From the NCBI GenBank assembly GCA_963758295.1, contig CAVWUU010000004.1:992001-1056000 (forward strand): a stretch of DNA of 64,000 nt, in the 5' to 3' direction. Below, in pieces: positions 4,068 through 24,503 of the stretch (position 1 is the first letter of the stretch; every line of letters begins with the position of its first letter). The notes beneath the pieces are model-generated. The model searched no databases and was not told the origin of the DNA. It saw only the letters and a program-made list of their open reading frames with translations. Source of the stretch: Candidatus Eremiobacteria bacterium (GTDB taxonomy: Bacteria > Vulcanimicrobiota > Vulcanimicrobiia > Vulcanimicrobiales > Vulcanimicrobiaceae). Both the position numbers and the translations under genes were made by a program.

Positions 4068-4130
4068 CTCTGTGCCGTCAATAGTACGTTACCGGCGCGG
4101 CCGAAATAAGGACTGCACTGCTCACAGGCC

Positions 4131-4195
4131 GGGACCTTTGAAGGAGGGACTTGAGCCCCGTAGTCCATGGTCACCGCTCGTGGGACTAACGCCTC
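4131..4195. promoter_or_regulatory. DosR/NarL-like 14-bp boxes in divergent wzc/sugar-transferase promoter
   Basis: GGGAC-TTGA-GCCCC (4146-4159), GGGAC-TAAC-GCCTC (4182-4195), half site GGGAC-CTTT (4131). Confidence 0.6.
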
Positions 4196-4234
4196 TCCGG
4201 TGCCTGCCTACTGCAAGCGTATCATCATCAACAC

Positions 4235-5675
4235 ATGTCGACGCGCATCATAGAGCGACCGGCGCCGCATAAACCGACGATTGTCAAGAGCGCACCTAGA
4301 ATGCACTCTCGGAGTTGGATTGCCGTGCTGTTCGTAAGCGACGTACTGTGCTTCCTAGTCGCTTCGGGCCTCGGCGCGCTCATTGGCTTTCACCATTGGG
4401 ACTCGCAAAGGATCGTTGGGCACTTGCTCGTTGCCGAAGGCATTTTCGTAGCTCTGTGGGTAGTGGTGTTCGATCGGCTCGGCCTCTACCGCCGCACCTA
4501 CGCGCTTTCGATGAAGGACGAGCTGTACTACACGACGGCTGCCCTGATTCTCGGGACGATTCCTCAGCTTGTCTTGTTCACGATTTATCCGGGAATCTCA
4601 ACGTCGCGCGTCGCGCTGCTCTACGGGATGCTCTTCTCCATCCTTATGGTTGGCGCGTCACGAAGCGTGCTGCATCGCTTACGCAATAGTAAGGTGTTCA
4701 ACCGGCATCGCCGCACGTGCGTCATAGGTACGGCTGCACGCGTATCGTCCGCCGTGCAAAGCCTCGACCTTCCCGACGATTCCGAGACGCTGTTGCTAGT
4801 CGTGGACGACATCGACGAGTCGGTCGCGCAGATCGACTTGACGCGCGACGCGGATCTCAGCACCATCGAATGGTTCAAGCAAGCACGCGACTGGGGTTGT
4901 GACGTCCTCATCCTCACCGAGATCGTACCACCGCACCTGGTCGCGCATCTGATTGAGGTCTCGGCGCGCGTTCATATTCGGCTTGCTTTCGCGCCTCCCC
5001 GAATTGCGCGCTACGCCTACGACCTGTCGCTGCAAATGGACGGCCGGCAAGCGCTTATCGTACCGATTCGGCTGCGCGCTTGTACGCCGCGCGCGCAACT
5101 CTTCAAGCGGTGGATGGACATAGCTTTCGCAAGCTTGGCTCTTTTACTCGCGGCGCCGGTGATGGCGATAGCCGCCATTGCCGTTTATCTGGATTCGGGA
5201 TGGCCGGTAATTTTTTGCGCAAGAGCGCGTTGGAGCGGGCGGCCGGCTCTTCAATATTTATAAATTCCGATCCATGCGCCTGGGTGCTGAAGACGAAGGC
5301 GGGGCGGTGTGGGCGACTAAGGACGATCCGCGAAAAACACGCATAGGCACGTTTCTCCGCCGCTTCAGCATCGACGAACTGCCGCAGCTCTTCAATGTTC
5401 TGCGCGGGAATATGTCACTGGTCGGACCGAGGCCGGAGCGCCCCGTCTTCGTCGACTTGTTCCGCACGACGCTTGCGCGCTACGATGAGCGGCATTTGGT
5501 GGCACCGGGCATCACCGGCTGGTCCCAAGTACACATGAAGCGCGTTCTCGAGACGTCGGCTGCCGGCGAAAAACTCGAGTACGACCTGCAGTACGTTGAG
5601 AACTGGTCGCTCTTCCTCGACATCTCGGTCCTTTTTCAAACGCTCTGCGAATTTTTGTTTCACCGAGCCGCCTGA
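4235..5675 (+). CDS. Initiating undecaprenyl-phosphate sugar-1-P transferase (WcaJ/WbaP type); extra T in homopolymer at ~5211-5216
   Basis: N-terminal TMs; KRWMDI, (Q)ERVG..F.IYKFRSM, DELPQLFNVLRGNMSLVGPRPE, PGITGWSQV after removing one T. Confidence 0.9.
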
Positions 5676-5676
5676 G

Positions 5677-6792
5677 ATGTCTGCACGCGTTCGGGTTTTA
5701 CACATTCTACCGTCGATCGAAGGGTACGGCGCCGAACGGCAGGTGGTTGAGTTGCTGCAGCGGCTGTCGTCACCCGACGTTGACGCTCGGCTAATGACGA
5801 TCTACGAGCCGTCGAAGGACGCAGCGGCGAGGCTTCCGTTTCCAATAAATCACGCAGGGCGAAAAAACCGGCGAGACTACTTCTTTCTAGGGCGGCTCGT
5901 TCGCGGCATCCGTGAGACCAAGCCGGATATCGTTCACACGCACACGCACGTCGGAAAATACTGGGGCCGCTTTGCCGCGATTCTCGCCGGGGTCCCTTAC
6001 ATCGTCCACACCGAGCACATCCCGTGCAATCCGAAACATTCGAGCCTGGAACGAATCGCGGATCTAGCCTTACATCCCGCAACCGCACGAATCGTGACGT
6101 TCTTTCGCGAACAAGCAGAGTCACTAAGCCGCGTGGAACGGCTACCCCGCGAAAAGGTCGCCATCATCCCCAACGGTCTGACGCTGCCCGAATCTCCGCC
6201 TGCCGAACGCGTCGCCGGACGGAAACTGCTGGGCGTCGTGCGCGATCAGTTTGCGATCGTCGTTATCGGTCGTATGGAATTCCAGAAAAACCAAATTCTC
6301 GCGTTGCGGGCTTTGGCTGCAATGGGGCCGGAATTGCGCAAAACCGTAATGATGTACTTCATCGGCGCCGGCGAAGATGAAATTTTGTTGCGCGGGCTTT
6401 CCCGTGCGTTGCAGATCGACGAAAACGTCCGATTCTTGGGCTTCCGCAAAGACGTGCCCGAGCTGCTTGCCGGCGCGGACCTTGTTCTAATGACGTCCTG
6501 GTTCGAAGGCATGCCGCTTACACTTATCGAGGCGATGATCGCCGGCGTTCCAATCGTCAGCACCCCGTGGGTGGGCGCCCGCAATATGCTCGGCGACGGG
6601 CGCTTCGGGTTCATTACGCCCGATTATGAACCGGCTCGCGTTGCTTCCGAAATCGAACGCGCCCTTATGCGCCCGATCGTTCGTAAAGAAATCGCGCAAC
6701 GTGCCCAGCAACATGTCTATGCCGAATACGGAATCGGCCGAATGGTTGATTCGCATCGCAAACTCTACCTGCAATTGCAAGGTGCGCGATGA
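5677..6792 (+). CDS. GT4 glycosyltransferase
   Basis: GYGAERQ, IPNG, GRMEFQKN, EGMPLTLIEAM (EX7E). Confidence 0.9.
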   Translation: MSARVRVLHILPSIEGYGAERQVVELLQRLSSPDVDARLMTIYEPSKDAAARLPFPINHAGRKNRRDYFFLGRLVRGIRETKPDIVHTHTHVGKYWGRFAAILAGVPYIVHTEHIPCNPKHSSLERIADLALHPATARIVTFFREQAESLSRVERLPREKVAIIPNGLTLPESPPAERVAGRKLLGVVRDQFAIVVIGRMEFQKNQILALRALAAMGPELRKTVMMYFIGAGEDEILLRGLSRALQIDENVRFLGFRKDVPELLAGADLVLMTSWFEGMPLTLIEAMIAGVPIVSTPWVGARNMLGDGRFGFITPDYEPARVASEIERALMRPIVRKEIAQRAQQHVYAEYGIGRMVDSHRKLYLQLQGAR

Positions 6793-8001
6793 TTGCGCGG
6801 CGCCTTCTCGTCGTCGCGTCTCGATTTCCGTACGGAACCCAAGAGTCGTATCTGCTCACGGAATTGGGCGAGCTCGTAAAATATTTCGACCGCATCGCCG
6901 TTGTGCCGATGCGTCAGCCTGAGGGACCCGTACGCTTTCAAGCTCCCGACGGCGTGGAAGTGCTTCACTGGCCCCTTATCAATGCCGAACTGCTCCGACG
7001 CGCGGCGTCCGCATTCAAAACACATCCGTCGCTCGCATCGCTTGCCGTCTCGCAAGTTCTCCGTTCGCGCGATCCGGGCCGCGCAAAGAATTTTGCCGTT
7101 ATCGTCAAAGGCTTAGCGCTCGCCGATTGGGCGATGGAGCACAAGTTCGATCACATCCACGCGTATTGGCTCTCGACACCTGCAACGATGGCTTTCATCG
7201 CTGCGACAACGAGCGGCATTCCCTGGAGTTCCACGGCGCACCGCTGGGATATTTACGAACGCAATGCCTTCGATGTGAAAGAACGCACGGCCGCCTTCGT
7301 CAGAACTATCTCTTCGCGTGGAACCGCTGATATCGAAAAGCGCATGCCCGCGCTCGCCGACCGTGTCCTGCAACTGCGGCTCGGTACAAACGTGCCACCA
7401 AAGCTCGAAGCACCGGCCCCCCTCGATCGTACGTTCCGCATCGTTTGTCCGGCAGCGCTCGTGCCGGTTAAGGGACACGTCGATCTCTTTGCGGCCCTAT
7501 GCCGTCTTCGAGCACGGGCGAATCACCGTACGCTGTACGGTTGCCGGAATGGGTCCTTTGCGGGAACAACTGGAGAAATTAGCGTGCGACCTCGGCATCG
7601 CCGATTCAATCGAGTTCGCCGGGTATGTTCCCCAAACGCAACTGCATCAGTGGTACCGCGAAGGGCGCTTCGCAGCGATGGTGCTTGCAAGCCGGTCGGC
7701 CGGCGAAAAATCGATGGAAGGCCTGCCGTCGGCGCTCATGGAGGCGATGGCGTTCGGAGTTCCGATTGTTGCAACCGATTCCGGAAGCGTCAGCGAGCTT
7801 ATCGACAATGCCTGGGGCCGTCTCGTGCAAGCCGGGTCGCCCGCAGCGCTGGAAGAGGCGCTTTTCGAGGTCTATCGCGATCCTGAGGGCGCGCGCGCCC
7901 GCGCAAAACGCGCTTACGACGTAGTCGCAAGCCAACACGACGTTCGCATTCAAATGCGAACGTTCGCTGCCGTTCTTTGCGGCGAAAGGAGCATGACGTG
8001 A
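6789..8001 (+). CDS. GT4 glycosyltransferase (WcaL-like); +1 frameshift near 7519
   Basis: HIHAYW, STAHRWDIY, LVPVKGH in first frame; EGLPSALMEAMAFGVP in second frame. Confidence 0.85.
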
Positions 8002-9275
8002 ATATCGCCGTCATCGGTTTGGGATACATCGGTTTGCCGACCGCCGCACTGTTCGCGCAACATGGGCACCGCGTGTACGGTTATGATGTCAATCCGCACG
8101 TACGTCGCACGCTGCAAAGCGGGGACGTGCAGGCGGGCGAAGAGCCGGTGCGCCACGCCGTCGAGCAAGCGATAGCGAGCGGGCACTTCTTCGTCCTCGA
8201 TCGCGTGCCCACAGCACAGGCTTATATCTTGTGCCTTCCCACGCCGACGCACGAAGGAAAGCCGGTGCTTGAGTACGTGGAAACGGCGGCCGCCGAAGTT
8301 GCTATCGTCGCGGAACCAGGCGCAATCGTCGTCTTGGAATCGACCGTTCCCCCGGGCACCACCGATAGGATCTTTGAGCGAGCGTTTGCGGAAGCCGGAA
8401 AAAACATCGACGACTATCACGTTGCGCATTGCCCCGAACGCGTCATTCCGGGAGCTATCATTCAGGAACTTGAGAACAACGCACGGGTCGTCGGCGGCCG
8501 CACGCCGGCCGACGCTGCCGTCGTCGCGGCGCTGTACGCATCGTTCTGTCACGGAGAAATTTCCTTAACGACGACGGCGGTTGCCGAGTTCGTAAAGGTG
8601 GTAGAAAACACGTTTCGCGACGTCAACATCGCATTCGCCAACGAACTCGCGGTCTTTGCTGAAGAGCTTGGCGTCGACGTTTGGGAAAGCATTGCGCTTG
8701 CGAACGCTCACCCGCGTGTGAATATTTTGAATCCTGGACCAGGCGTCGGCGGTCATTGCATCCCGGTGGATCCGCTGTTTCTTGCCGATGCGAATCCGCT
8801 CGTTACGGAGTTGATTCAATCGGCACGACGCGTGAACGAACGCATGCCCTATCGAATCGTCCGGCGGATCTCGGAACTCGTCGAGCCGGCTCAAGGGCGG
8901 AAGATTGCCATTTTGGGGGCTGCTTATAAGGCCGACGTCGACGATGCGCGTGAAAGTCCCGCGGTTCGCATCGACCATCTGCTTCGCGAACATCGCTACA
9001 CGACGGCGATTTACGACCCGTTGGTACAGCACTTTGCACGCCCGCTTGCGCAAACGCTTGAAGAAGCTGTAACCGGCTCCGATGCGGTGGTTCTTGTAAC
9101 GCCGCACTCCCAGTTCCGCGCAATTGACCCGGCGGAAGTGGCGTCACTAATGCGTGCGCCTCGCCTTGTTGACACGCGTAACTTCTTCGATGCGGCAACG
9201 TGGCAACACGCGGGCTTCGAAACCTACTTTCTGGGACGCCCGTTTAAGAAACGGTTGGCTAGGGCAGTGGCATGA
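7998..9275 (+). CDS. wecC: UDP-N-acetylhexosamine 6-dehydrogenase (WecC/WbpO family)
   Basis: GLGYIGLPTA, ESTVPPGTT, CPERVIPG, KVVENTFRDVNIA, PGPGVGGHCIPVDP; GTG start overlapping upstream stop. Confidence 0.9.
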   Translation: MNIAVIGLGYIGLPTAALFAQHGHRVYGYDVNPHVRRTLQSGDVQAGEEPVRHAVEQAIASGHFFVLDRVPTAQAYILCLPTPTHEGKPVLEYVETAAAEVAIVAEPGAIVVLESTVPPGTTDRIFERAFAEAGKNIDDYHVAHCPERVIPGAIIQELENNARVVGGRTPADAAVVAALYASFCHGEISLTTTAVAEFVKVVENTFRDVNIAFANELAVFAEELGVDVWESIALANAHPRVNILNPGPGVGGHCIPVDPLFLADANPLVTELIQSARRVNERMPYRIVRRISELVEPAQGRKIAILGAAYKADVDDARESPAVRIDHLLREHRYTTAIYDPLVQHFARPLAQTLEEAVTGSDAVVLVTPHSQFRAIDPAEVASLMRAPRLVDTRNFFDAATWQHAGFETYFLGRPFKKRLARAVA

Positions 9276-11442: not shown

Positions 11443-12273
11443 CCGCTCACACAGTCCACGGCTTTTGGACATGGCAGCTCATCTTTGCAATGGCGCTGAA
11501 CTGCGTGGTGCAGGCGCTAGCTGTTGCGGCTTATGCGGCTCGATTAGCTGGCGCGCGTTCCGGCCGGGTTGCTACTGCTATTTCGCTTTTCAATATGTTT
11601 GCAACGAGCAGTCGATTCGCGCAAATGTTCTACACGCCGATGCTCGGGTCTTTATCAGACCGCGCCTCAGTTGGCAACAATAGATGTTTTCCAATGGCAG
11701 CTGCGTTCGATCGTTTTCGCCGGGACGTTCGGAGTTATAGTGGGAACACTCGCGATTCCGACGTTCGTCATGCTGTACCTTCGCGCGATACACTCGCTCG
11801 AGCGCCACGGAAGCGTCCCAAAAGCAGCGATCCGGATCTTCCGGCCGCTCACGGCCTTCGCCGTACTGAAAGACATAAAGTTCGGCGTAGCGAGTAAAAT
11901 CAGAGATTTATCGTTCCGGCATGTGCCCAAAGACGTGCTCGTGCTCAACACGTTAGTAACGTCGATCTACGGCATCGGCATCGTTGCCGCGGCGTATGCT
12001 AGCGTCTTATATCCTCAGGCTGCCCGAACTGCGGTATTGTCCAGCGGGCTCGTGAACGGCTTTGCCACGATTGCTTATAACATCGTCGTTGATCCGGCTT
12101 CCGCGCTGATCACCGACCGCACCGTGCGCGGCGAACGATCGGTGGACGACGTAAAGTCGCTCGTGACCGGCCTATCACTTACGGCGATTTTAGGATTTCT
12201 CTGTTCGCAGCTGCTGCTTATCCCGGGCGCGCTGCTTATCGAGTGGGCAGCGAGGCTGATCACAGCGCATTGA
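11439..12273 (+). CDS. Amj-family (DUF2837) lipid-linked glycan flippase; +1 frameshift near 11675
   Basis: AYAARLAGARSGRVATAISLFN..SR, SGLVNGFATI, VDP motifs of Amj split over two frames. Confidence 0.78.
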
Positions 12274-12282
12274 ATCGCTGAT

Positions 12283-12364
12283 ATAGGCCGAGAGGCCTAT
12301 GCGATGAGCCGTTCATCTCGAAGACGACCTTGAGACCTTCGCTTCTGGGAAGCACAACGGTCCT
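12283..12364. promoter_or_regulatory. 14-bp DosR-like boxes upstream of wzy/ligase gene
   Basis: Inverted repeat with perfect 7-bp arms ATAGGCC-GAGA-GGCCTAT (12283-12300); CGACC-TTGA-GACCT (12325-12338); AGCAC-AACG-GTCCT (12351-12364). Confidence 0.55.
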
Positions 12365-12385
12365 ACCTTATACTGAACAGAACGC

Positions 12386-13770
12386 ATGATAAACACAACG
12401 GTCCAACAGCTCGGCTTACGGGCGGCGCTTGTAGCGGCAACAGCAGCATTCTGCGTTCTCGCGGTCTTTCTGTTGATTTCGGGCACCTCGCTGGGCGCCG
12501 CCGGCATAGTTGCCATTGCCATTGCGCCATTCGGCCTGTATCTCGCATTGGTTCGCCCGGTCATGTTTCCTTTCGGCTTATACGTGCTACTGATTCCATT
12601 CGATAATTTGCTTGGTTTTGGGTCGTTCGGAACAATCACGAAGTTGCTTGGCGCAGTGGCGGGGGTTTTTTTACTTTTCTGGGGCGTTAGACGACACGCT
12701 CTTAACTTTGGTGGCCGCTCGGTCTTGCTGCTTTCCGTGCTGATGGTGTGGATGTTGATCAGTTCGCTTATGGGCGCTAGATCAACAAGACGCAATGCAG
12801 ATCGTGCCGACCTACGCCGGTCTAATATTGCTTTACGGCGTTGTCAGCGCAATCCCAATCAACGGCGCCCAATTTCGCATGCTGCTGTTCTTACTGTGGC
12901 AGGCGGCGTCATTGCGTCGGCTTATGGTGCGAATGTGTTTTATCACGACCCAACACTCACTCAAAACATGCGGCCGCAAGACTGGTACTTACATTCCGGC
13001 GCGTTTACATCGACCCCAACCAGTTTGCCGATTCGTTATTGTTTCCGGCGGCGATTTTCGCGATGTGGGCCTCCATTTATCGAGGATCTTGGTTAGGCTT
13101 CTGTGCGTGGCGGACCTTGGGCTCGTTACGTTAGCGATTCTTTGGAGCGGTTCACGTGAAGCGTTAATCGGACTGGCTTTCATCGGCCGCATACTTTATC
13201 TTCCGCGCTCTCGCAGGCTATATGCTTGCACTCAATAGTGCTATCGTGCTCGCGGTCGCGGGAACCGTGCAGACATCGATTTGGATGCGGTTTCAACCGC
13301 GATCGACACCGGCGGTTCGGGCCGAACATCAATCTGGGCCGTCGGAATCGAGGCGGCGAAGCATCGCCTTCTTCAAGGATACGGGATGGGAAATTTGCCG
13401 GATGCATATGATTTATTTTATCTCGGCGTACATCAAACTTATCCATTCGGGTTCAGCAGTCCGGCGCACAACCTGGTTCTGCACTATTTAGTGGAGCTCG
13501 GTTCCATCGGGCTCTTGCTTGATGGTCTATTTTTTTTATCGGAATTCCGTTCGCTCAGGCACATCAGGCCGGGCAGCCGAGTACTACGATTACCGAATCA
13601 TGCTCGAAGGCGCGTTCCTCGCATTGGCAGCGGTGTCGCTGACCATCGATCTCTTCACCTACAAATATGCGTGGCTCGTATTCTTCATGATTGCTTTTCT
13701 GCGAAACGTTGCGCCGGTCAACAAGAGCGCCGCGCAGTATCGCTATGGAAGCGAATACATGTTGAAATAA
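12386..13770 (+). CDS. O-antigen ligase/Wzy polymerase family membrane protein, broken by about seven frameshifts
   Basis: Fragments in successive frames give DPNQFA, SGSREA, GSGRTSIW, GYGMGN, AHNLVLHYLVELG. Confidence 0.8.
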
Positions 13771-14565
13771 TTAAACGTATTCTGCTGGCGAGTCAAGCGT
13801 TGAGAAATGCGGCACGCTCCAGTCCCACACGTAAAGCCCGATCCCGGTAATAACGTACTGCGATTGGCCGCCGGCTGGTTTCTGCAAGTTTGAGATTTTC
13901 GGAAGGACAAGACGGAATTCGGTCCGTTCCGGTTCAACGTGCACGAACCGTTGCCGTCGTAAGAGAGCGTGACTTTCAAATCCCACGTATCTGCTGTACC
14001 TTTGTGTATGGTCCGCTCCAAGCTAGATCATTGAGCTGCCCGTCATTGCTGCAGTGCAAGTAGTATTTATTGCCTGCGCCGCCGATGTTTTCTAAGCCGA
14101 AAGCGACCGGGGGCGGCGCTTCGATATTGTCATGAATCTGCAAAATTAAGCTCTGCGTCATGTTGGCATCGGGCGTCAGATCGCCCGCCGTTCGAAATCG
14201 GTACTCGACCGTGGATCCGTTTTGCGGTATAGTCGCTCGTGCTGTTTGAGCGCGGCACCCAGAATCGCCATACAACGAAACGGACTCGTCGCGTCTAAGT
14301 TTGGCACGCGCAATTGAAAACGTCGCGGCGAATTTGGCGAAAGTTTCATACAATTAGCCGCTTCGCCGCCTTCACCGGGGTTAGAAGGCTGGCCGATGTC
14401 CATCGAAGCGTACCGCCGTCTGGCGGCGCCGGGGTGATCCTGGGCGAGCACCGCCTGAGCTTGTGAAGTGAAGAAGCGCTACGTTTTGGGTGGATTGCTT
14501 CGACGTGCCACCCGCGCTGCAAGAACAAAGAAACACTAGGAACATTGCGGCGATAACTCTGATTC
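13771..14565 (-). CDS. Putative lipoprotein with polysaccharide-lyase-like (QIH motif) jelly-roll domain; multiple frameshifts, ends approximate
   Basis: Reassembled fragments: IAAMFLVFLCSC (lipobox-like), SLILQIHDN, WSGPYTKGTADTWDLKVTLSYDGNGSCTLNRNG, GIGLYVWDW. Confidence 0.55.
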
Positions 14566-14712: not shown

Positions 14713-15481
14713 GTGTGCTTTACGCTGGTTTTTGACCCTTGTGCTCCTCGCACTTGCTCCAGTTCGCGGGTACCCCGCCATGCAACCATGTGGCAAACCG
14801 GCGACCCAAGTCTCGGCAAATGGGTGAAGGCCGATAACGATGACTATCAATGCGGCATGCCGCGAGTTCGCGGTACGCAGATGCTGTTCACGCTGATCGA
14901 AGACACCGAGCGGATATTCATGCGGCAGGAACGAAGCAAACCTTTTAATTCGAGCGGCGAGCTGCTCCGTCTTGAACAGGGACGCACATATACGTTTTCG
15001 TTCCACTACGTAGACGGCACGCCTGGCGGCTCGGCGCCGGGAATGGGCGGCGACGCTGACGCTCGCAGTCTCATATGGCAAATTCACGGCTATCCCGAAT
15101 TTGGCACACCTTGTACGACGTTAAATTTCTTCAACGGCGGAAAAATCGGAGGGCCTCAGCAGTGGGCGCTCGGCACGTGCAACGCACGCGGAGAAAGCTT
15201 GATGGGCAAAGTTCAGCCGGTGTGGACCGGAACCTATACGCCCGGGCGAAACCGACGACTGGAAGATCATCGTAGTTGCCTCCAATGAAGCAACCGGCTC
15301 AGTAACCTTATACCGGAATAACGTGCTTCAAGGCAGCTGGCGAAACATCGTGACATACCACGGCATCAACCGACCGTGGGTTGGGATAGGCGCATATAAA
15401 TGGATCTGGGAGCACCGCAATCTGTCGAGTATGACGCAGGTAAACCTCACCATTGAAAATTTTCTCGTTACCACACCATAA
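14713..15481 (+). CDS. Secreted polysaccharide-lyase-like protein (heparin lyase I/PF14099-like); +1 frameshift near 15245
   Basis: ARSLIWQIHG, WTGTYTPGETDDWK, GSVTLYRN, GIGAYKWIWE; clear paralogue of C-terminal domain of 15556-17179. Confidence 0.65.
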
Positions 15482-15498
15482 CGATACGGTCGCACATG

Positions 15499-15537
15499 AA
15501 ACGAAGACCGCCGGCACAAACCAGCGGTCTTCGTTTT
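15499..15537. terminator. Bidirectional intrinsic terminator between convergent lyase-like genes
   Basis: AAACGAAGACCGC...GCGGTCTTCGTTT 13-bp stem. Confidence 0.75.
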
Positions 15538-15555
15538 GCGATAGTCAGACGATTA

Positions 15556-17179
15556 CTACTGCGTAAGCGTCATGTTGTTGATGGTCGCATTGATTTTCGT
15601 CATAGTCGATCCGCCACCGCCGGACAATTCCCAGCGCCACTTGTACGGTCCAAAGTTCCACCACGGATTGCCGGAGCTGTTGTGGTAGTTCGCGCCGCTC
15701 ACGGAAGCAACGAGCGAGCCGTTGCGGTAGAGCTGCGTAAGGCCGGTTGACCCTTCCGAGATGCGAGCCACGATCTTGAACGAATCCGTTTCACCCGGGG
15801 TGTACGTTCCCGTCCACACGATGCCGGCAGCACGTCATGAGTGCCCACATCTGGGGACCGCCCGTATCCTTCGTTCCGTTGACAAAGTTCAGGCTCGTGC
15901 AAGGCGTATCCGGCTCGTTGTAGCCGTGAATCTGCCAAATTAGCGAACGTGCGTCGTTATCTGAGCCCATGCCGGGGCCGCCGCCGCTCGGGGTACCATC
16001 AACGTAATTGAACGACCACGTGTACGTTCCGCCATCCGCCAGGCGGACCGTCGAACCGGAGCTCGTCAGCGGATTGGCTTGATTGCGTCCGCAAGACGTG
16101 CCGCTCAGTGAGAGCCCGAACGTGAACGTCGTGCCGCTGTTGACCGGATTTCCACACTGGTATGTATTCGCCGTCGTCCACTTGCCGAGAGTTGCATCGC
16201 CGGCTTTCCAGATCGTGGTTCCGCTTACAGGAGCGGCGGTCGGAGTCGCAACAGGCTTCGCGGTCGGCGCGGCGGTCGGGTTTGCCGTCGGAGCCGAGGT
16301 CGGCTTCGCTCCGGCAGTCGGCGCCGACGTTGGCGAAACGGTGCCGGCTGACGTTGACGCGCTGTAATGAGCGCTGACTTGCGACGCACTCAAGGCCTTG
16401 TTGTATACAGCAACGTTTCCGATGGTTCCACTGAATGCGGGGTTCGACGACGACGCATCGTCGCCGATTGACAGACCGTAACCGCTGACGTAGGTCAGGC
16501 TTCCGGTGGCAGCGCTCGATGCAACGAGCTTGCCGTTGAGGTACAGGCTTGCCGTCGTGCCGCTATACGTTGCGACAGCGTCATATGCGGTGTTCGCCTG
16601 AAGCGTCGGCGAGGTCAGTTCCGTTAATCCGCTCGAACGCGTGAACTGCGCAATGATCTGGCCGTTCTTGAAGAACAGCTCGTACGTCGCGTTACCGCTA
16701 CGCTGCCCATACGCAGCCAGTACGGTGTAGTTCGCCGGCTCGGCGGCAAAACGGAAGAGTGATTCGATCGAAACGGCAGATGCGGGCTGCAGCATCGACG
16801 TTGCAGCAACGCGGATTGCACCGGCCGCTGACCGCGTGCCAGGGAACGCCATCGCGTTGGTAGACGGGACGATACCCGACGCGTCGAGTTGAACCGACGA
16901 TCCGACCGTGCCGTCGAGGCCGTTGCCGGTCGCATCAACTGCAGTGCGCGTCGAATCGGAAAGGGGATAGTAAGCAACCGGTGTGTCGCTCGAAACAATA
17001 GAACTATAAGACGATTGGGCGGACGTCGATTCCAGAACCGTCTGGCCCGTGGAGCCGGAAGCGGGGAGCGCAGGCAACGTGCCTGATGATGCGGTTGTGC
17101 CTCCACCTGCACTTCCGCCGCACGCGGCCAAACTCAAGCTCAAAGCAATAGGAAACAGACGCTGTAAGGGTTTCAGCAT
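15556..17179 (-). CDS. Lipoprotein: LamG domain + Pro/Thr/Ala linker + polysaccharide-lyase-like domain; +1 frameshift near 15829
   Basis: LAAC lipobox; PVAYYPLSD...LYLNG...VAVYNKALS (LamG); ARSLIWQIHG and NFGPYKWRWE. Confidence 0.75.
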
Positions 17180-17351
17180 TAGACCTCAGATTTAGGCGTA
17201 GTAAGCTGCGCGCAGAAACGCCGGCCTTGGCCTTGGCGCAAAACGGACAGCCCTAGTTAGCTCGCTTCCTTGCTTCTCCGCGTCTGTCTGTGTGGGGGAG
17301 TGGGTCGATAAACGCAGGTCCGAGATGGGCGCACGACGGCACCCGATATAG

Positions 17352-17395
17352 AAGTGGTCGGACCTTGCTGAGGGGGACTTTAGTGTTTACGGCCC
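17352..17395. promoter_or_regulatory. DosR-like box/half-sites upstream of LamG-lyase gene
   Basis: GGGAC-TTTA-GTGTT (17374-17387) with flanking GACCT and GGCCC half sites. Confidence 0.45.
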
Positions 17396-17423
17396 TTGAA
17401 GAATTACAGCTCGGTTAGAGCGC

Positions 17424-18920
17424 CTAATGCTGCTCTACCGGCCGGATTAAGCGTACGCGAGATCCGAAGAAAGCCCTGTCACTTTCGACTTTATAATTAG
17501 AAGCAACGTAGCGCTCGACTGCTCCGCAGCCGAAGCTGATATTAGCTGCCACGCACTCTCCCGCGGTGATGAGCCAAAGGTGTTTGGCCTTCGGAAAAAC
17601 AGCCTGCAGTTGTGCATTACTTTTGACGACGAATCGCGTTACGTCATATCGCGAGAAGTCGACGCCTTCCGGTACGGCGATCACGCGATTGGGCCCGTGA
17701 TAGTAATAGGCGAACGGCAGTGCATTTTCGGCTTGAAAGATTAAAATCGGCTCGCCCGGCGCTTCTCGCGCGCTCAAGTACGAAGTGGAACGGATCCAGT
17801 CACCCGGCTTCGCTAGCGCGTAGTAGGTCTGAATAAGACTGGCTACCGAGACGATCATGGCAAGCGCAAACCAGATCGAAGCAGCTCGCCGATCCAGCGG
17901 GCTACGGAGAAACGTAAATGCGGCAAAGACGGCCAGCATGACTGGAACGAATAGCGAAGCAGCATGGCGGTTGAGGATATGAACGCCGCCGGCGTACGCG
18001 CCTGCCGCGAAGATCAGCACAGCAACCATCAACATCACGACCACCGGCGCACTACCCGATGCATGGAAGAAACGGCGCCCAGCGATGCCGGCGCCCACTG
18101 CCATAACGCTCAGAACGATGTAGAGCACCGTCGCGTGCGGGACGCCTAACGGCAGCACGTATCGCCACAAAATGCTCGCCAGAATCGCGGCCGAATGGAA
18201 AACCGACGGCGGCGGGGCAAAGGCGCCGCGAAAATTTGCCACTTGCGACGGGACGATGATGAGCATCGGCACAAAAAGAATCGCCGCGGCAAATGCCGAT
18301 GCGAAGAATGGGCGCCACGCCGATCGCCGGTAGAGCAGCATCGCTGCTCCTTGCGCCGCTACTAGGAATGCCAAATAGTATTGGGTGTACAGTGCAACGG
18401 CTATGCACAGCGCGTATAACACGGCTGCGCGCGTAGAACGCCGATCCGCGAGAAAACCGTCGAAAAATAGCAGCATGAGCAATGCCGAGAGCAAGATCAC
18501 GAGCGCGTAAACACGCAGCTCGACAGCCGCCCAAATCAGGAATGGATTCCATGCGACGGCGAGAGTAACGAAGCCGAGGTTCCCTTTGGGAATATAGCGC
18601 TTGACAAGAGCCGGAATGAGCGCAACCGTTGCGGCTCCGCATAGAATCGATGAGAGCCGCAGAAAGAACAGATTCTCGCTTAGATGGCGCCAGAAGACCA
18701 TTAACACGAAGTAGAGCGGCGCGTTCTGTTCGAAGGCCAATGCTTCGTGAAACGCATAGCCCACGCCGTGAGCCGTAGACTGTAGCGTGTACGCCTCGTC
18801 TTGCCAAAGATTGAGAACCGCAGCGAGCGGCAGTGTAAGAAGCAAGTTCAGCGATACGGCAATAACCGCGACCGAAGGGCGGCGCACGCCTTCAAGAGCC
18901 AGTCTATCTACTGCAGCCAT
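17424..18920 (-). CDS. GT-C membrane glycosyltransferase (GT39/PMT_2, ArnT-like)
   Basis: LWQDEAYT, APLYF, ELRVYAL, ALYTQY; many TM helices. Confidence 0.8.
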   Translation of the reverse strand: MAAVDRLALEGVRRPSVAVIAVSLNLLLTLPLAAVLNLWQDEAYTLQSTAHGVGYAFHEALAFEQNAPLYFVLMVFWRHLSENLFFLRLSSILCGAATVALIPALVKRYIPKGNLGFVTLAVAWNPFLIWAAVELRVYALVILLSALLMLLFFDGFLADRRSTRAAVLYALCIAVALYTQYYLAFLVAAQGAAMLLYRRSAWRPFFASAFAAAILFVPMLIIVPSQVANFRGAFAPPPSVFHSAAILASILWRYVLPLGVPHATVLYIVLSVMAVGAGIAGRRFFHASGSAPVVVMLMVAVLIFAAGAYAGGVHILNRHAASLFVPVMLAVFAAFTFLRSPLDRRAASIWFALAMIVSVASLIQTYYALAKPGDWIRSTSYLSAREAPGEPILIFQAENALPFAYYYHGPNRVIAVPEGVDFSRYDVTRFVVKSNAQLQAVFPKAKHLWLITAGECVAANISFGCGAVERYVASNYKVESDRAFFGSRVRLIRPVEQH

Positions 18921-18978
18921 TTAAGCAATTGTACGACGGCATTCCCAGGTCGAGAGCGTGCAAATGGACTGGATGCGT

Positions 18979-19018
18979 ACCCTGGAAGTCCCGGGCGGTT
19001 TTCTAGGCCCTAAGTCCG
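18979..19018. promoter_or_regulatory. DosR-like boxes between divergent GT-C genes
   Basis: AGGCC-CTAA-GTCCG (19005-19018), half site GGAA-GTCCC (18984-18992). Confidence 0.55.
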
Positions 19019-19073
19019 CAAAGGCGGTCTTCCGTCTCTCGTGTCGCAATCATTGCTACCGTACAGTTGCTGT

Positions 19074-20519
19074 ATGCGCAAGCGTTCTTTGCCCATCGCC
19101 TTTCTTGGCGTGTCTTTCGCGCTTGTCTTAGTTGCGGTTTTCTTAGCGCTTCGCGGCGTTCCGGAACACCAAAGCTTTAAAGCCTTTTATTGCGCCGGGT
19201 CGACGATCTCAGAACGCCAGGATCCCTACCTCGTCGAGCCGCTCCGGACGTGCGAGCGCCGTGTGTCGAACAACGCGATGACGGCCAATTTGGTGGAACC
19301 CGCTCCGCTGCCGGGCTATGCAGTGCTGCCGTTTGTGGTTCTCGCAAAGCTGCCGCCCGTATCCGCGGCCATCGTTTTTTCCGCTGGATTGGCGGTTGCA
19401 GTAAGTCTCTGCGCGCTCATGCTCGGATCGATGCTGAGGCGATCCGCCGCAGCAATTCTTCTGGTTCTCTGCCCTTTAGCGATCCTAAATGCCGCTTACG
19501 GCGAAATCGCACCTTATGCGCTCCTAGCGCTATGTGCCGCGGCCTACTTCTTGATGAAAGAGCGCTGGGTTGCGGCAGCCATCGCGGTATGCTGCGCACT
19601 GCTTCAACCGAACGTCGCGTTGCCGTCCGTTCTCGCGGTCTTCGTTTTTGCGCCACGCACGCGCGTGCCTATCGCTATTTGCTGCGCCGTTCTCGCCGCA
19701 GTGAGCGTCGGTACGCTCGGATTTGCGCGCAACATCGAGTACGTTACGGCAGTCTTGCCGCTTCAGGCCTATTCTGAGCTGGTTGCGAACGACCAATACA
19801 GCTTGAGCCGGATTTTGTTCGTAGCCGGCGTTTCTTCGGAAGGCGCGATGCTGATCTCAAGGATCGCATACGCAGCGGCTGCTCTTATCAGCGTGGCGCT
19901 TTCCGGCATGCTTGCCGCTCGGTGGAAAAGCGCATCTCTCTTGGCGCTTCTCCCGGCGGCCCTTATCTTGACCGGCGGTATTTACGTTCACGATATTCAA
20001 CTGCTCTTCGCCGTCCCGGCAGCGCTCTTGATTTGGTCGCGCGTGCGGGGGACGTCGTACGCGCCGCTCGCAATTGCATCGTTGCTGATGCTGGTCAACG
20101 TTTGGTCTCAGCGCGCCGGGCGCGCCTCGTTGGCCGTTGACGCCGTCGCAGCAGCCGCGGTCATCGCAATCGTGGTTCGCGGGCCGATCGTACGCCGCTT
20201 CGCGCTGATGACGACAGCGGCTATAGCGATGATCGGATGCATGGTGCTTCTCCAAAAGATAGAGCCGCCTGCAGCGGGCGAGATCGCGTCGGCGGCATTT
20301 TCTGCGCCGGCCACTGAACTCGCGCCCATTGCTTGGGCGGCCTACTTACGCGCTACGCCGGAGCTGATGCGTGTTGAGTTCGCACTCAAGACTCCAACGT
20401 ATATTGCTCTATTATTTCTTTACGTTGTGGCGATCGGAGCTTCCGTTCGCGACAAAACGAATTTGCTTACGCTAGACCGTGACGAATCGCGTGCACCGCC
20501 GCTTGCGACCGGGTCGTGA
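19074..20519 (+). CDS. GT-C membrane glycosyltransferase (GT87/DUF2029-like)
   Basis: FKAFYCAG..DPY, PLPGY, LQPN, QYSL, HD motifs; multi-TM. Confidence 0.65.
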   Translation: MRKRSLPIAFLGVSFALVLVAVFLALRGVPEHQSFKAFYCAGSTISERQDPYLVEPLRTCERRVSNNAMTANLVEPAPLPGYAVLPFVVLAKLPPVSAAIVFSAGLAVAVSLCALMLGSMLRRSAAAILLVLCPLAILNAAYGEIAPYALLALCAAAYFLMKERWVAAAIAVCCALLQPNVALPSVLAVFVFAPRTRVPIAICCAVLAAVSVGTLGFARNIEYVTAVLPLQAYSELVANDQYSLSRILFVAGVSSEGAMLISRIAYAAAALISVALSGMLAARWKSASLLALLPAALILTGGIYVHDIQLLFAVPAALLIWSRVRGTSYAPLAIASLLMLVNVWSQRAGRASLAVDAVAAAAVIAIVVRGPIVRRFALMTTAAIAMIGCMVLLQKIEPPAAGEIASAAFSAPATELAPIAWAAYLRATPELMRVEFALKTPTYIALLFLYVVAIGASVRDKTNLLTLDRDESRAPPLATGS

Positions 20520-21099
20520 AGTTCAACTTCGAAAAGATGTGACTGACATGGTTCTTCACGGTCTTCTCGGAGAGGATGAGTCGCGCTCCGATATCGCGAT
20601 TCGACAATCCCTGCGCGATCAAACGAATGATTTCCGTCTCGCGCGGAGAGAGCTGATTCGCGCTGGGCTTGCTCGCCGAGATGCGGCGGCGGAAAAACGC
20701 CGCTGCCACGCGAGGATCGACGTAGTTCGCCCCTTCACCGACGGTTTTGATGGCCGTAATTAACTCTTGAAGCGATGAGTCCTTAACGATATACGCATCG
20801 GCACCTGCGGAGAGACAGTGTTGCAGAAACTCCGGCTGCGTATGCATCGATAGGGCGCAGATCCGGGCGGAGGGTGCCCGGGCCTTGAGGTGTTCCACGA
20901 TGTCGTCGATGTCATCGTTGTCGATATCGATTACGACGACGTCGGGCTGCTCTTTCATCAGAGCCTGAGACTCAACGTCGGCGGTGATGCCGATGACGCG
21001 CACGCCCGGGTCCGATGAGAGCGCCTGGGCGACGGCTTTGCCAAAAAGCAGTTGCTTCTCGACGATGCATACGCTAAGCGGCCTATGTGTAACGTTCAT
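20467..21099 (-). CDS. NarL/LuxR-family response regulator (DosR-like recognition helix)
   Basis: REC domain (VVIDI, LSMH, YIVK) plus LSPRETEIIRLIAQGLSNRDIGARLILSEKTVKNHVS HTH. Confidence 0.92.
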   Translation of the reverse strand: MNVTHRPLSVCIVEKQLLFGKAVAQALSSDPGVRVIGITADVESQALMKEQPDVVVIDIDNDDIDDIVEHLKARAPSARICALSMHTQPEFLQHCLSAGADAYIVKDSSLQELITAIKTVGEGANYVDPRVAAAFFRRRISASKPSANQLSPRETEIIRLIAQGLSNRDIGARLILSEKTVKNHVSHIFSKLNFTTRSQAAVHAIRHGLA

Positions 21100-21264
21100 T
21101 GCAGTGCCAACCCTTGTAAATATCAAGCGTAAAAGCACGCCTCGGCGCGTCCCAAAAAGGCACACCGAGCCGACCAGAAGCGCACGGCCCACTCGCGCTC
21201 GTAGGTTTTGGAACGCCCCTCACCCGGCGCGGTCATTTCCTAATTTAGATTTAACGATTGACAC

Positions 21265-21320
21265 GGGTCTACAGACAAGGGGCTTAGGTACTGGGCCGAA
21301 CGGCCGGGCACTTAGGACGA
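21265..21320. promoter_or_regulatory. Four abutting 14-bp DosR-like boxes upstream of the regulator
   Basis: GGGTC-TACA-GACAA / GGGGC-TTAG-GTACT / GGGCC-GAAC-GGCCG / GGCAC-TTAG-GACGA. Confidence 0.55.
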
Positions 21321-21331
21321 ATGCCGCTCTT

Positions 21332-24300
21332 TTAATGAATCCAGGGCGCCCATGGGGTTCGGGGCGATGCTCGATGTGCCGGTCGGACGGAGTGGCTGGA
21401 TTTTACGACGCGTTTTTGTATTGCAGTTGCTTGCGCCGGCAGCGCAAACGCGGTGATTGTGCCATCCGCCGCACCGACGAAGACCGTTCCGCTATCGATT
21501 ACCGCACCTACATTTCCCCAACTCGAAAGAGCGAAGCTCCACAGCTGTGAGCCGGTTGCTGCGTTGAACGCGTACTGTGTATCGCCCGTGTAGTTCGCCA
21601 CATAGACGACCCCGTTGGCTATTGAGATCGGCGAACGGGGAGCCTGCACCGAGGCAGTGCCGGCCGGTCCGAAGTTCGCACTCCATACCGGCGTAGGATT
21701 CAGCGTGCAATTCGCCTGCATGCTGAAGGCTGCAAGCCCCGGTTGATAGATGCCTTGCATCGACGGCAAACCGACATACATGTAATTTGTCGCCGGATCG
21801 TAGGCGGGCACGCCGGAGAAGCCCGCTTCGTCACTCGTAACGGACATCTGGATGTATTGCACGGGACCCGAACCGATCGAGGATCGGTCGTAAACCTCAA
21901 GCATCCCTGATTTGTTCATCGCTGCAAGCATCGCGGGACAACCGGCAGGCTCGAACAACAACGGCGTCGCGCCGAAATCGAAATCGTCATATCCCGCCGG
22001 CGCCGGGATATTTTCCGGGTAGTTGTTCGCAATAATGCCCAGCGTTGGCGACAGCTCCACGACCTGTTCGGCATACGTCGCGTTCTGCGCCGCGCCGCTG
22101 GTCGTGTCGGCATTACCTGTAGCAACGAATACGTCATTCGTCGCGGGATCGATCGATGCACCTCCCGGCCCCCAAATGCCACCACCGCTGGCGCCCTGTG
22201 TCGAAGTGCCGGTCATCGTGTAAAACGTACCGCTGATGCTCGGCCCGCTAGTGTTGATCGCCACGATCCGTCCGTACCAGGGCGAAATGTCGCACGTCGA
22301 ACCGGTTACGGCATAGAGCATCCCGTTAGAAGGATTGTAGGTAAGGCCGCCGTGCATAAAATTATGGTCGGGCGTATAGTTTGCAATCGTGATCGGCCAT
22401 CCGCCGGCCTCTTTCCCGGTGGCGAGATCGACGGCGTGGACTTGATTTATGCCGTCCGAAAAGTACAACCGGTTTTTGCCGCGGTCGATCGCCGGTGTTT
22501 CTCCAATTCCAAATGTGGACGCTGACGTTCCGCAATTATAGCTGGAAGTCGGCACCGCGTCTTGCCATACGATTGCGCTTGTCGCCGTGTTGATGGCGTA
22601 CATCGTTGCGCCGTACTGCGAGCCGGCGTAGAGAATGTTGGTCAATTGGCCGCTCACGTTTACATTGTTCGCAAGGACAGGCTCGTGCACCATACTGGAA
22701 CCGACGTTGAACGTCCAAGCCTGCTTCAGCGTGCTGACGTTAGATATTCCGACCGTCGACTCGACCGGATTGTAACCGGTCCGCTGCAAGTCAAAGCCGA
22801 ACGATAGCCAGTCGGCCGCCGGCGGCGTTGGACTGCCTGCCGGCGTCGACGACACGCCTGAAGTTCCCGCAGTGTAGTGATTTTGAATTTGCGCCGCGCT
22901 CAGCGTTTTGCCGGCATACACGGCAACTTCGTCGATGGACCCCTTGAAAGCTGGATCGCTCAGACCCGCGTCATCGCCGATCGTAAGCCCGTACCCGGCC
23001 GTATAGTCCGCAAGCGTGCCGGTCTTCGCGCCGCTTGCAACCAGCACCCCGTTTACGTAAAGGCGGCCCGTCGTGCCATCGTACGTCGAGGCAACGTAGT
23101 AAACTTTGTTAGCCGCAAGCGCCGTTGGTGAAGGGACTTCCAAGACGCCGCTGGAGAGATAGAATTGTGCAACGAGCTGTCCGCCGGTGCGAAAGAACAG
23201 CGAATACGGCGCGTATGAAAAGTCGGTGCCATATGCGACGAGCGTCGTGTAGACCGGCGGAGTTGTTGCGAACTTTAGCCATGCTTCCAAAGAAACGGTT
23301 GTTGATGGTTGCAGCGCGCTGCTTTGTTTGACGGAGATAATACCTGCACTTGAAGCGGTGCCCGGGAACCCCATCGAGGATCCCGTGCTCGCAGGCAACA
23401 GCGATGCACCGCCTTTAGTAACGGACGACCCGATTGTGCCGTTGTATCCGTGCCCGGTCTTATCGGTTGCGAGCGTCCCGGTGTCGTCGAGTTCGTAAAA
23501 GGCGGACGGCGCGTCGGCGAGCACGATGCTTCCGTACTGGCCACTAACAATCGGGGTCGGCGTCGGTGCGGGACTGGGACTAGCGCTCGGGCTTGGAGTT
23601 GGCGTCGTTACACTGCCGCCCGTCCCGGCGTTGTAGTGATTCAGCACTTGCGCCGCCGTTAACACCGTCCCGGCGTAAATCGCGACTTCGTCCACCGTAC
23701 CGGCGTACGTGGGATCCGTCAGCGCTGTATCGTCGCCGATACCAACGCCGAAGTTCGGCGTGTAGTTGGTAAGCGATCCGGTCTTGGCGCCCGTTGCAAC
23801 TTGAACGCCGTTCACATACAAGCGTCCCGTCGTTCCATCGAACGTCGAGACGACGTGGTATGTGGTATTTACTGCGAGTTTTGAAGGGGCCGCAACTTCG
23901 AGCACGCCGGCGGTCGTATAAAATTGCGCGACGAGCGCACCGCCGGCTCGGAAGAATAAATCGTATGGTGCATAGAGTCCGTCGCTGCCATACGAAACGG
24001 CGGCGGCGTATGTCGTAGGCACAGACGCAAAGCGGATCCAGGCTTCTACGGAAACCGCCGAAGCCGGTTGCAGCTTAGTGTTCTTCGGCACCGTCACGAT
24101 CGCTGCCGACGTCGCCGAACCTCCGGGAAACGCCATAGCCGTATCGGAAGTCGACGATAGCAAGCTCGGAGCGCTTTTCGTCACCGACGCGCCGATGGCG
24201 CCGTTGATGCCGTTGCCGCTGCTATCAGCAGCGGTGCTCCCGGTGTCGTCAAGGCGATAGTAGGCAGTTGGGCTGTCAGCGAGCACGATCGTCGCGTAAT

Positions 24301-24430
24301 CCGCGCCGTTGGCCAGAGTGGACCGACGCTCTAGCGGCGGCAATCCGCTTCCGCCTCCGTGTCCTCCACAAGAAGAAACAGCAGCTGTCCCGGCAACTGC
24401 CAGAAGCAACGCACGCCATGTTGCTCGCAT
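21332..24430 (-). CDS. Large lipoprotein: two tandem LamG domains + PQQ-like beta-propeller
   Basis: VSSC lipobox; two near-duplicate ADSPTAYYRLDD/ADAPSAFYELDD LamG repeats; DWLSFGFDLQRTGYNP, GGGIWG, DFDFGATP propeller motifs. Confidence 0.8.
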   Translation of the reverse strand: MRATWRALLLAVAGTAAVSSCGGHGGGSGLPPLERRSTLANGADYATIVLADSPTAYYRLDDTGSTAADSSGNGINGAIGASVTKSAPSLLSSTSDTAMAFPGGSATSAAIVTVPKNTKLQPASAVSVEAWIRFASVPTTYAAAVSYGSDGLYAPYDLFFRAGGALVAQFYTTAGVLEVAAPSKLAVNTTYHVVSTFDGTTGRLYVNGVQVATGAKTGSLTNYTPNFGVGIGDDTALTDPTYAGTVDEVAIYAGTVLTAAQVLNHYNAGTGGSVTTPTPSPSASPSPAPTPTPIVSGQYGSIVLADAPSAFYELDDTGTLATDKTGHGYNGTIGSSVTKGGASLLPASTGSSMGFPGTASSAGIISVKQSSALQPSTTVSLEAWLKFATTPPVYTTLVAYGTDFSYAPYSLFFRTGGQLVAQFYLSSGVLEVPSPTALAANKVYYVASTYDGTTGRLYVNGVLVASGAKTGTLADYTAGYGLTIGDDAGLSDPAFKGSIDEVAVYAGKTLSAAQIQNHYTAGTSGVSSTPAGSPTPPAADWLSFGFDLQRTGYNPVESTVGISNVSTLKQAWTFNVGSSMVHEPVLANNVNVSGQLTNILYAGSQYGATMYAINTATSAIVWQDAVPTSSYNCGTSASTFGIGETPAIDRGKNRLYFSDGINQVHAVDLATGKEAGGWPITIANYTPDHNFMHGGLTYNPSNGMLYAVTGSTCDISPWYGRIVAINTSGPSISGTFYTMTGTSTQGASGGGIWGPGGASIDPATNDVFVATGNADTTSGAAQNATYAEQVVELSPTLGIIANNYPENIPAPAGYDDFDFGATPLLFEPAGCPAMLAAMNKSGMLEVYDRSSIGSGPVQYIQMSVTSDEAGFSGVPAYDPATNYMYVGLPSMQGIYQPGLAAFSMQANCTLNPTPVWSANFGPAGTASVQAPRSPISIANGVVYVANYTGDTQYAFNAATGSQLWSFALSSWGNVGAVIDSGTVFVGAADGTITAFALPAQATAIQKRVVKSSHSVRPAHRASPRTPWAPWIH

Positions 24431-24489
24431 AATAAATTTAGCGTAGGAGTCGCTTCTACGCGTTGGCAGAGCATTGCGTCGCGTATTCT

Positions 24490-24503
24490 GGGACGAAGGA
24501 CCT
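24490..24503. promoter_or_regulatory. DosR-like box upstream of LamG-propeller gene
   Basis: GGGAC-GAAG-GACCT. Confidence 0.55.

Follow-up and report, generated by a model that had tools for sequence, protein, structure and literature searches.

The divergent promoter region at the head of a surface polysaccharide locus in an Eremiobacterota genome contains boxes with a GGGAC core that have been kept by selection, and a regulator encoded in the same locus may be the protein that reads them. The stretch analyzed, G000 C4:992001-1056000 (64,000 bp, hereafter the window), belongs to a 3.03-Mb genome of 6 contigs with a G+C content of 60% and a completeness of 82%. A polysaccharide locus of the Wzx/Wzy type occupies bases 1 to 24,500 of the window, as delimited with Pfam. 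An earlier interpretation made from the letters alone (the sequence-only reading) had proposed that a DosR-box-like motif recurs in six promoter regions of this locus and that a DosR-like regulator encoded there switches on polysaccharide synthesis, lyases, and surface lectins together. Two of these features prove genuine in the present analysis: the locus does have a motif of the GGGAC type that partly resembles the DosR box, and it also has a co-inherited, DosR-like regulator. For a local circuit in which the resident NarL/FixJ-family regulator would read the GGGAC boxes of the locus, we estimate a probability of roughly 0.55 from the sequence comparisons described below. The features on which the argument turns are as follows.

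1932-4067, minus strand: 'wzc' co-polymerase of the tyrosine-kinase type (Pfam Wzz, GNVR, and P-loop ParA/AAA_31).
4068-4234: IG1, the divergent promoter region, with boxes A to D and two predicted -10 elements.
4235-5675, plus strand: priming sugar transferase (Bac_transf, with Pfam matches on both of the pieces described below).
20467-21099, minus strand: orphan NarL/FixJ-family response regulator of 210 amino acids (Pfam Response_reg, 45.5 bits, and GerE, 69.5 bits, both above the cut-offs).

The wzc and priming glycosyltransferase genes are transcribed divergently, and the alignment of IG1 between them was enlarged stepwise to 3, 5, 8, and then 27 genomes from 12 genera. IG1 consists of sharply conserved blocks amid diverged DNA, in the alignment of 8 genomes and then in the stack of 27, and the majority consensus of the 27-sequence stack is ATAAGGAC-N5-TGCTCA-N6-GGGACCTTTG-N5-GGGACTTGTGTCCT. 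Four boxes were delimited.

4107-4124, plus strand: box A, TAAGGAC-N5-TGCTCA.
4131-4140, plus strand: box B, GGGACCTTTG, the best-conserved element.
4146-4159, plus strand: box C, GGGAC-TTGA-GCCCC, an imperfect inverted repeat 15 bp after box B.
4182-4195, plus strand: box D, GGGAC-TAAC-GCCTC, about 25 bp upstream of the predicted -10 element of the priming transferase gene.

Most columns of box A (consensus ATAAGGAC...TGCTCA) are conserved at 70 to 99% in the 27 sequences. In box B, GGGAC is found in 27 and GGGACCTT in 21 of 28 genomes; its matrix score of 17.7 is the second best in the genome, and a simulated genome yields one equal match by chance. The consensus of box C over 27 genomes, GGGAC-TTGT-GTCCT, is one mismatch from the DosR core GGGAC-N4-GTCCC, and so is the site in the window. 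The spacing between boxes B and C is 15 bp in most genomes and 17 bp in G173, and box C is absent from G128 and G151. In box D, the right part (AA-S-G-N-C-W-C-T) is conserved and, by our reading, the left GGGAC occurs in only 7 of the 27 genomes. A GGGAC/GTCCC inverted repeat with a 4-bp spacer is clear for box C only; boxes B and D and a further site at 18984, described below, are not clear palindromes. Boxes C and D had been listed by the sequence-only reading at 4146 and 4182 and are conserved, and the best-conserved box, at 4131, had been missed. This comparison shows that the GGGAC-core boxes B, C (GGGAC-N4-GYCCC), and D of the wzc/priming transferase promoter region have been kept by selection. 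Between boxes C and D (4160-4176), most of the 27 genomes share one more conserved block, GAGTCAC or GGTCAC. Ahead of paralogous wzc genes GTCCC seemed enriched, but there it belongs to the coding sequence of an export gene upstream, which specifies a conserved G-D-x-V-Y-V-P.

A second conserved site was found in the region at 18921-19040, between two genes for membrane proteins that have no Pfam or NCBIfam match.

17424-18920, minus strand: membrane protein of 498 amino acids.
18984-18993, minus strand: conserved half-site, CGGGACTTCC, on the strand of the 498-amino-acid protein gene and about 50 bp upstream of its predicted -10 element.
19004-19019, minus strand: weak box-C-like match, the originally listed site at 19005, with a matrix score of 8.0.
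19041-20519, plus strand: membrane protein of 492 amino acids.

The nearest ESM Atlas clusters of the 498-amino-acid protein carry PMT_2, and those of the 492-amino-acid protein are GT87 and mostly from Vulcanimicrobiota; these neighbors make both proteins probable GT-C membrane glycosyltransferases, PMT_2-like and GT87-like, respectively, assignments that are offered as leads only. The site at 18984-18993, which was not on the original list, is the reverse complement of GGGACCTTYG. Of 18 genomes, 15 have GTCCC at this site and 10 have the exact 8-mer GGGACCTT on one strand or the other. In the sister genome G003, which is syntenic with 65 to 76% DNA identity, the equivalent site gets 12.3 from the box C matrix, which has 16 columns and was built from 21 relatives belonging to other genera. 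The listed site at 19005 is not conserved in G003, G014, G295, G180, or G173, and the conserved 18984-18993 is adjacent to it. A box of the IG1 type is shown to be kept also in the divergent region between the two putative membrane glycosyltransferase genes.

The boxes were placed relative to promoters predicted by eye. Our reading of the conserved blocks puts the -10 element of wzc at 4081-4086 (ATAGTA, on the minus strand TACTAT) and that of the priming transferase gene at 4220-4225 (TATCAT), and we place that of the 498-amino-acid protein gene at 18928-18933 (ATTGTA, read TACAAT). With all three 7 to 14 bp from the respective start codons, the messages would be leaderless or have short leaders. 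Box B would then be about 61 bp upstream of the predicted wzc start and the 18984 box about 65 bp upstream of that of the 498-amino-acid protein gene, and the boxes in the regulator promoters of other genera would lie about 57 bp upstream of the predicted start. Distances of about 57 to 67 bp upstream of predicted starts would be classical positions for an activator.

That the conserved blocks are promoter parts (UP-like, -35-proximal, or alternative sigma factor sites) or RNA-leader elements, not dedicated regulator sites, seems to us very unlikely. Box A adjoins the predicted -35 element of wzc, IG1 is conserved nearly end to end in blocks, box B and the 18984 site are asymmetric, and bases 1-30000 of the window have no match in Rfam, which leaves room for a novel RNA element. 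On the other hand, the boxes lie between two divergent promoters, as we read these, and hence outside both transcripts; the same 8- to 10-mer is found again about as far ahead of another promoter; and box C is an inverted repeat of the type bound by dimeric helix-turn-helix proteins. Scans with promoter and terminator consensus sequences gave nothing exceeding shuffled controls.

The candidate reader of the boxes has a receiver domain followed by a GerE domain, and its recognition helix, EKTVKNHVS, stands at residues 178-186, as had been stated from the sequence. The predicted start at 21099 agrees with the N termini of the orthologues, and the closest public relatives are from Candidatus Eremiobacterota/Vulcanimicrobiota genomes. 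The proposed likeness to DosR stands in part. DevR/DosR, with the helix EKTVKNYVS, is the best relative of solved structure in the PDB ranking (102.6 bits, E 1.9e-28), followed by NarL (94.4) and VraR (92.4). The regulator is below every NCBIfam equivalog cut-off (the best model, MctR, gives 120 bits against a cut-off of 300), which suggests that it is not a DosR orthologue. The base-contacting residues of DosR named in the available text of PMC4082495, Lys179, Lys182, and Asn183, are all kept in the regulator, and EKT[IV]KNHVS is common to all 34 orthologue loci. The peptide EKTVKNHV is exact in 79 of the best 80 loci, from several phyla, a count that is biased because the search used that peptide as its pattern. 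The idea that the helix singles out this regulator does not hold, since K-T-[VI]-K-N-[HY] occurs in 7 of 11 tblastn matches in the genome, the regulator included. The helix matches the box in a suggestive but not a specific way.

In the receiver domain, alignment to DevR and NarL shows that the accepting Asp, a Ser, and a Lys are in place and that the Asp-Asp pair is replaced by Glu-Lys; E-[KR]-Q stands at the Asp-Asp position in 33 of 34 orthologue loci. No partner kinase lies near the locus: the single HisKA_3 domain found in this 82% complete genome, at C4:575733, is far away and beside another regulator. Kinase domains of the haem-GAF type, that of DosS/DosT, were absent from the neighboring genes scanned with Pfam, a scan that was not aimed at GAF-type kinases. 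The NarL-type subfamily with Glu-x-Gln in place of Asp-Asp also includes the paralogues at C4:258688, C4:987131, C2:205095, and C1:539376, and several such paralogues adjoin other wzc-like genes in relatives (e.g., G009, G015, G007, and G018).

The regulator and wzc are inherited together. Among 348 genomes of the family searched, with a threshold of E<=1e-190 for wzc orthologues, the regulator was found in 56 and wzc in 43; 42 had both, 1 had wzc only, 14 had the regulator only, and 291 had neither. The odds ratio of co-occurrence is 873, for related genomes that are not independent. The two genes are mostly on one contig, 7 to 28 kb apart. The gene for the 492-amino-acid protein is convergent with the regulator gene and overlaps its end, an arrangement that is conserved; the 498-amino-acid protein gene is next to the regulator gene also in G295, G173, and G180; and the trio of the two putative GT-C genes and the regulator gene keeps its arrangement in five other genomes examined. 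These patterns show the regulator to be a conserved resident of the polysaccharide locus that travels with it across genera. The family-wide tallies of the paralogues beside wzc-like genes and of the direct repeat discussed below include genomes flagged as unpublished (G004, G030, G036, G045, G046, and G058); the alignments are free of them.

In other genera, a conserved promoter precedes the regulator orthologues, with GGGAC-N4/5-G[TA]C[CT]C right before the -35 element. A site with at most one mismatch to GGGAC-N4/5-GTCCC occurs in 7 of 32 distinct upstream regions, compared with 0 of 32 in control DNA and a resampling mean of 0.75, and GGGAC occurs 40 times in 10.1 kb upstream of the orthologues versus 11 times in 10.2 kb downstream.

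Several further observations concern these orthologue promoters. In L166, L176, and L184, for example, an A-rich tract, GGTTG, about 17 bp, and ATG-ny-A-n-AC-k, with the look of an extended -10 element, follow one another about 40 to 130 bp before the start codon. Some genomes have the promoter as close as about 37 bp to the start codon, a hint of leaderless messages in the phylum. In L179 and L185, the predicted -35 and -10 elements flank a perfect palindrome of 10 bp, GGGACGTCCC, about 30 bp before the start codon of the regulator, a position that would suit repression, not activation.

Two other candidate motifs were rejected. The direct repeat GGACYT-N9-GGACYT (4132 and 17360) was considered as the true motif; the closest pair of 24-mers among the six regions is no more alike than usual (P 0.64), and the repeat is about as common as its reversed control in 61 genomes of the family. 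The strict pattern GGGAC-N4/5-GWCYCAC gave 1 to 3 matches per relative in five relatives versus 0 to 2 for the reversed control (8 versus 4 in total), with no sign of a wider regulon.

The motif as originally proposed spans six regions with a total of 977 bp (4068-4234, 12274-12385, 17180-17423, 18921-19040, 21100-21331, and 24431-24532). Every string quoted by the sequence-only reading is present at its coordinate. The consensus written for them, RGG[ACT]C-N4-G[TGA]CCY, fails to describe most of them: it has 3 matches in the 64-kb window (12285, 15740, and 24490) and is obeyed by 2 of the 7 singly quoted sites. Counted against the DosR core, the mismatches are 1 at 4146, 2 at 4182, 4 at 12285, 3 each at 12351, 17374, and 19005, and 2 at 24490. 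Sites with at most 3 mismatches occur at about 3.4 per kb genome-wide, with equal density in coding and noncoding DNA, the split being made by our own crude gene caller (about 81% coding), whose errors the background sets inherit.

As a set, the six regions do exceed the intergenic background, as the sequence-only reading would lead one to expect. They hold 12 sites with at most 3 mismatches versus about 4.05 expected (empirical P 0.0015 with random intergenic sets and 0.0012 with resampled sequence) and 3 sites with at most 2 mismatches (empirical P 0.017 with random intergenic sets; 0.33 expected from the genome-wide density). The recurrence of the motif across the six regions of this genome is above chance as a set, and four of the regions hold weak, species-specific candidates. 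The description of six promoter regions is thus borne out by conservation for 4068-4234 and 18921-19040 and not for the other four, whose main sites are the following.

12274-12305, plus strand: stem-loop containing the listed site at 12285, directly after the stop codon of an Amj-like gene.
17373-17388, plus strand: weak box-C-like match (listed as 17374), preceded at 15 bp by CGGACCTT, with a matrix score of 8.2.
21278-21293, plus strand: weak box-C-like match, one of the sites listed at 21265-21320, between the lectin gene and the regulator gene.
24488-24503, minus strand: the listed site at 24490, GGGAC-GAAG-GACCT, upstream of the gene for a 1032-amino-acid protein, with 2 mismatches and a matrix score of 8.0.

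The site at 12285 forms the top of a hairpin: the RNA fold of 12270-12310 has -17 kcal/mol (z -4.83), and 0 of 200 shuffles are as good. A stem-loop at 21293 is no stronger than shuffles (z -0.39). With a composite matrix of boxes B and C, the site at 17373 scores 11.6, the fourth best in the genome, and a simulated genome gives 3 such matches. The match at 21278 scores 10.2 (adjusted P of about 0.05), and the counterpart region in G003 scores 4.4. At 24490, G003 has 4 changes at the site and an identical flank, and the region scores 0.6. The expectation that the motif would stand upstream of orthologous genes is therefore upheld in G003 for 4068-4234 and 18921-19040, the only two regions that score there (12.5 and 12.3), and not for the regions at 17180, 21100, and 24431; the region at 12274, with the sites at 12285 and 12351, has no blastn match in G003.

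The box C matrix provides an independent test. Its best scores in the six regions, in order, are 15.4, 9.2, 8.2, 8.0, 10.2, and 8.0, at the listed sites 4146, 17374, 19005, 21279, and 24490 and, in 12274-12385, at an unlisted 12324. We see an even chance that, outside 4068-4234 and 18921-19040, the listed sites are chance matches plus two GC-rich stem-loops, so that a circuit would cover two regions, not six. The 3 to 4 mismatches per site, the hairpin at 12285, the lack of conservation in G003 (4.4 and 0.6 versus 10.2 and 8.0 here), and the ordinary pairwise similarity of the regions all favor this explanation, and the reversed matrix is also fairly high (z 2.93), which indicates that composition supplies part of the signal. 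Against it, all five regions besides 4068-4234 are in the top 7% (a score of 8 is attained by 7% of 472 other intergenic regions), and their observed minimum was never attained, whether in 50,000 random draws, in 100,000 draws matched for GC, or in 3,000 Markov resamples. In addition, 0 of 300 column-permuted matrices attain the real z of 4.26. Weaker versions of the test gave P values for the minimum of 3.8e-4 (14-column matrix) and 0.23 (box B matrix). Matrix scans of the whole genome found no convincing sites outside the locus, and the genes adjoining the other noncoding copies of GGGACCTT are unrelated (NHL repeat, aminotransferase, TetR, MFS, and MmyB-like).

Several results weigh against a circuit run by the resident regulator. 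The residues with which it would read DNA are shared by at least five paralogues in the same genome; the one encoded at C4:987131-987739, some 5 kb ahead of the window, has a syntenic counterpart in G003. Box B and the 18984 site are single half-sites, not palindromes, and coding DNA and a simulated genome yield matches to single-box matrices that are just as good. In G003, conservation is lacking for four of the six regions, and the sites at 17374, 21265-21320, and 24490 are not kept there. None of the predicted promoters was listed by the promoter consensus scan, the starts being our reading of hexamers. The conserved promoter that precedes the regulator gene in other genera is missing at that place from this genome and from G003. 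G215 keeps the boxes, and the regulator orthologue was not found in its 350-contig assembly, where the best match is 50% identical. Finally, some orthologues lie outside sugar loci, L078 beside a Clp ATPase gene and that of G012 between acetyltransferase and TonB-type receptor genes.

The paralogues, the shared K-T-[VI]-K-N-[HY] signature, G215, and the orthologues in unrelated neighborhoods would also suit an explanation in which the boxes are genuine operator or activator sites read by another protein, a NarL-type paralogue or an unrelated factor, and the resident regulator has other targets. We regard this as unlikely: the phyletic and physical linkage of the regulator to wzc is very tight (42 of 43 genomes), and the GGGAC inverted repeats upstream of the regulator's own gene in several genera fit self-control.

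If the resident regulator does read the boxes, it would bind the inverted repeat as a dimer, perhaps cooperatively on neighboring half-sites, and would activate the wzc promoter, the promoter of the 498-amino-acid protein gene, and, in other genera, its own promoter. The weaker, species-specific matches in the four further regions may extend the circuit to lectin-like genes, which is uncertain. With no partner kinase nearby and without the Asp-Asp pocket, control other than ordinary phosphotransfer may apply. A fuller proposal, which we put forward tentatively and consider somewhat improbable as a whole, is that the locus has, as a fixed component in at least 12 Eremiobacterota genera, an orphan regulator of the NarL type whose receiver pocket is degenerate, and that this regulator acts through GGGACCTTYG and GGGAC-N4-GTCCY boxes some 60 bp ahead of genes with leaderless or short-leader messages, in response to a signal other than a partner histidine kinase, e.g., a small ligand or the tyrosine kinase of the locus.

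The remainder of the locus was annotated mainly with Pfam, which also recognized family 4 glycosyltransferases, a UDP-glucose dehydrogenase, a C5-epimerase, and Amj- and Wzy-like pieces, as well as two lectin-like proteins.

15791-17179, minus strand: Laminin_G_3 (concanavalin-like) surface protein.
21332-24430, minus strand: protein of 1032 amino acids with Laminin_G_3 and a PQQ-type beta-propeller.

Among the loci examined, the gene for the 1032-amino-acid protein adjoins the regulator gene in this genus only. The lyases proposed for the locus were not found; the two unnamed genes resemble those of GT-C membrane glycosyltransferases. The priming transferase gene is broken into two frames here (4235-5263 and 5274-5675), and the copy in G003 is intact (479 amino acids); by our reading, the frame with the conserved motifs continues past the stop of the first piece. 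The Wzy-like (12386-13850) and Amj-like (11569-12273) genes appear truncated or fragmented, too. The broken genes may reflect genuine decay of the locus or indel errors in the assembly. Beyond the locus, a scan for direct repeats found a 15-bp tandem repeat, ATTGGACTTCATCGA x2, at 30042-30062 directly after an acetyl-CoA synthetase gene.

The DosR box of Mycobacterium tuberculosis DosR/DevR is reportedly a 20-bp palindrome with the core GGGACT-WW-AGTCCC. Box C and several sites upstream of regulator orthologues match GGGAC-N4-GTCCC with 1 or 2 mismatches, whereas most boxes here are single half-sites with the extended consensus GGGACCTTYG, and the flanks of the 20-bp consensus are unmatched. 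The regulator belongs to the same family as DosR/DevR, differs from it by one residue in the helix with the three base-contacting residues kept, and plausibly controls its own gene. It differs in that it is apparently not an orthologue, NarL and VraR being nearly equal in score; in that it has no nearby partner kinase and has Glu-Lys, not Asp-Asp, in the receiver domain; and in its presumed targets, which are sugar-polymer genes, not hypoxia genes.

DegU of Bacillus subtilis, another member of the NarL family, exerts pleiotropic control over exopolymer genes and binds an inverted repeat well upstream of the -35 element, according to the accessible text of bioRxiv 10.1101/2023.08.04.552067. The DegU site given there, CTAGG-N8-CCTAG, differs in sequence and spacing from the boxes here. 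RcsB/RcsA, VpsT, CsgD, and EpsA (PEP-CTERM) are likewise regulators of the LuxR/GerE type tied to a polysaccharide locus, and they match the regulator more weakly: with VpsT only the DNA-binding domain aligns (E 1.3e-8), the EpsA model gives 57 bits versus a cut-off of 170, and RcsB and CsgD are also far under their cut-offs. The RcsAB box differs in sequence from the GGGAC boxes, and VpsT has a receiver domain that operates without ordinary phosphotransfer, as may hold here. Neither LuxR-type regulators of polysaccharide loci nor palindromes of the GGGAC type are new, so a circuit that combines them is no surprise in kind.

Eremiobacterota are abundant in peat, polar, and volcanic soils, and to our knowledge almost nothing is known of gene control in the phylum; a literature search, judged by title, found no paper on polysaccharide regulation in Eremiobacterota. 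A conserved box, a co-inherited regulator, and defined target promoters together make a concrete circuit that is testable without culturing the organism. The circuit would aid the annotation of surface-glycan loci in Eremiobacterota genomes, and, if the proposal of a regulator with a degenerate receiver is true, it would be the first cis-regulatory code worked out for an almost uncultured phylum.

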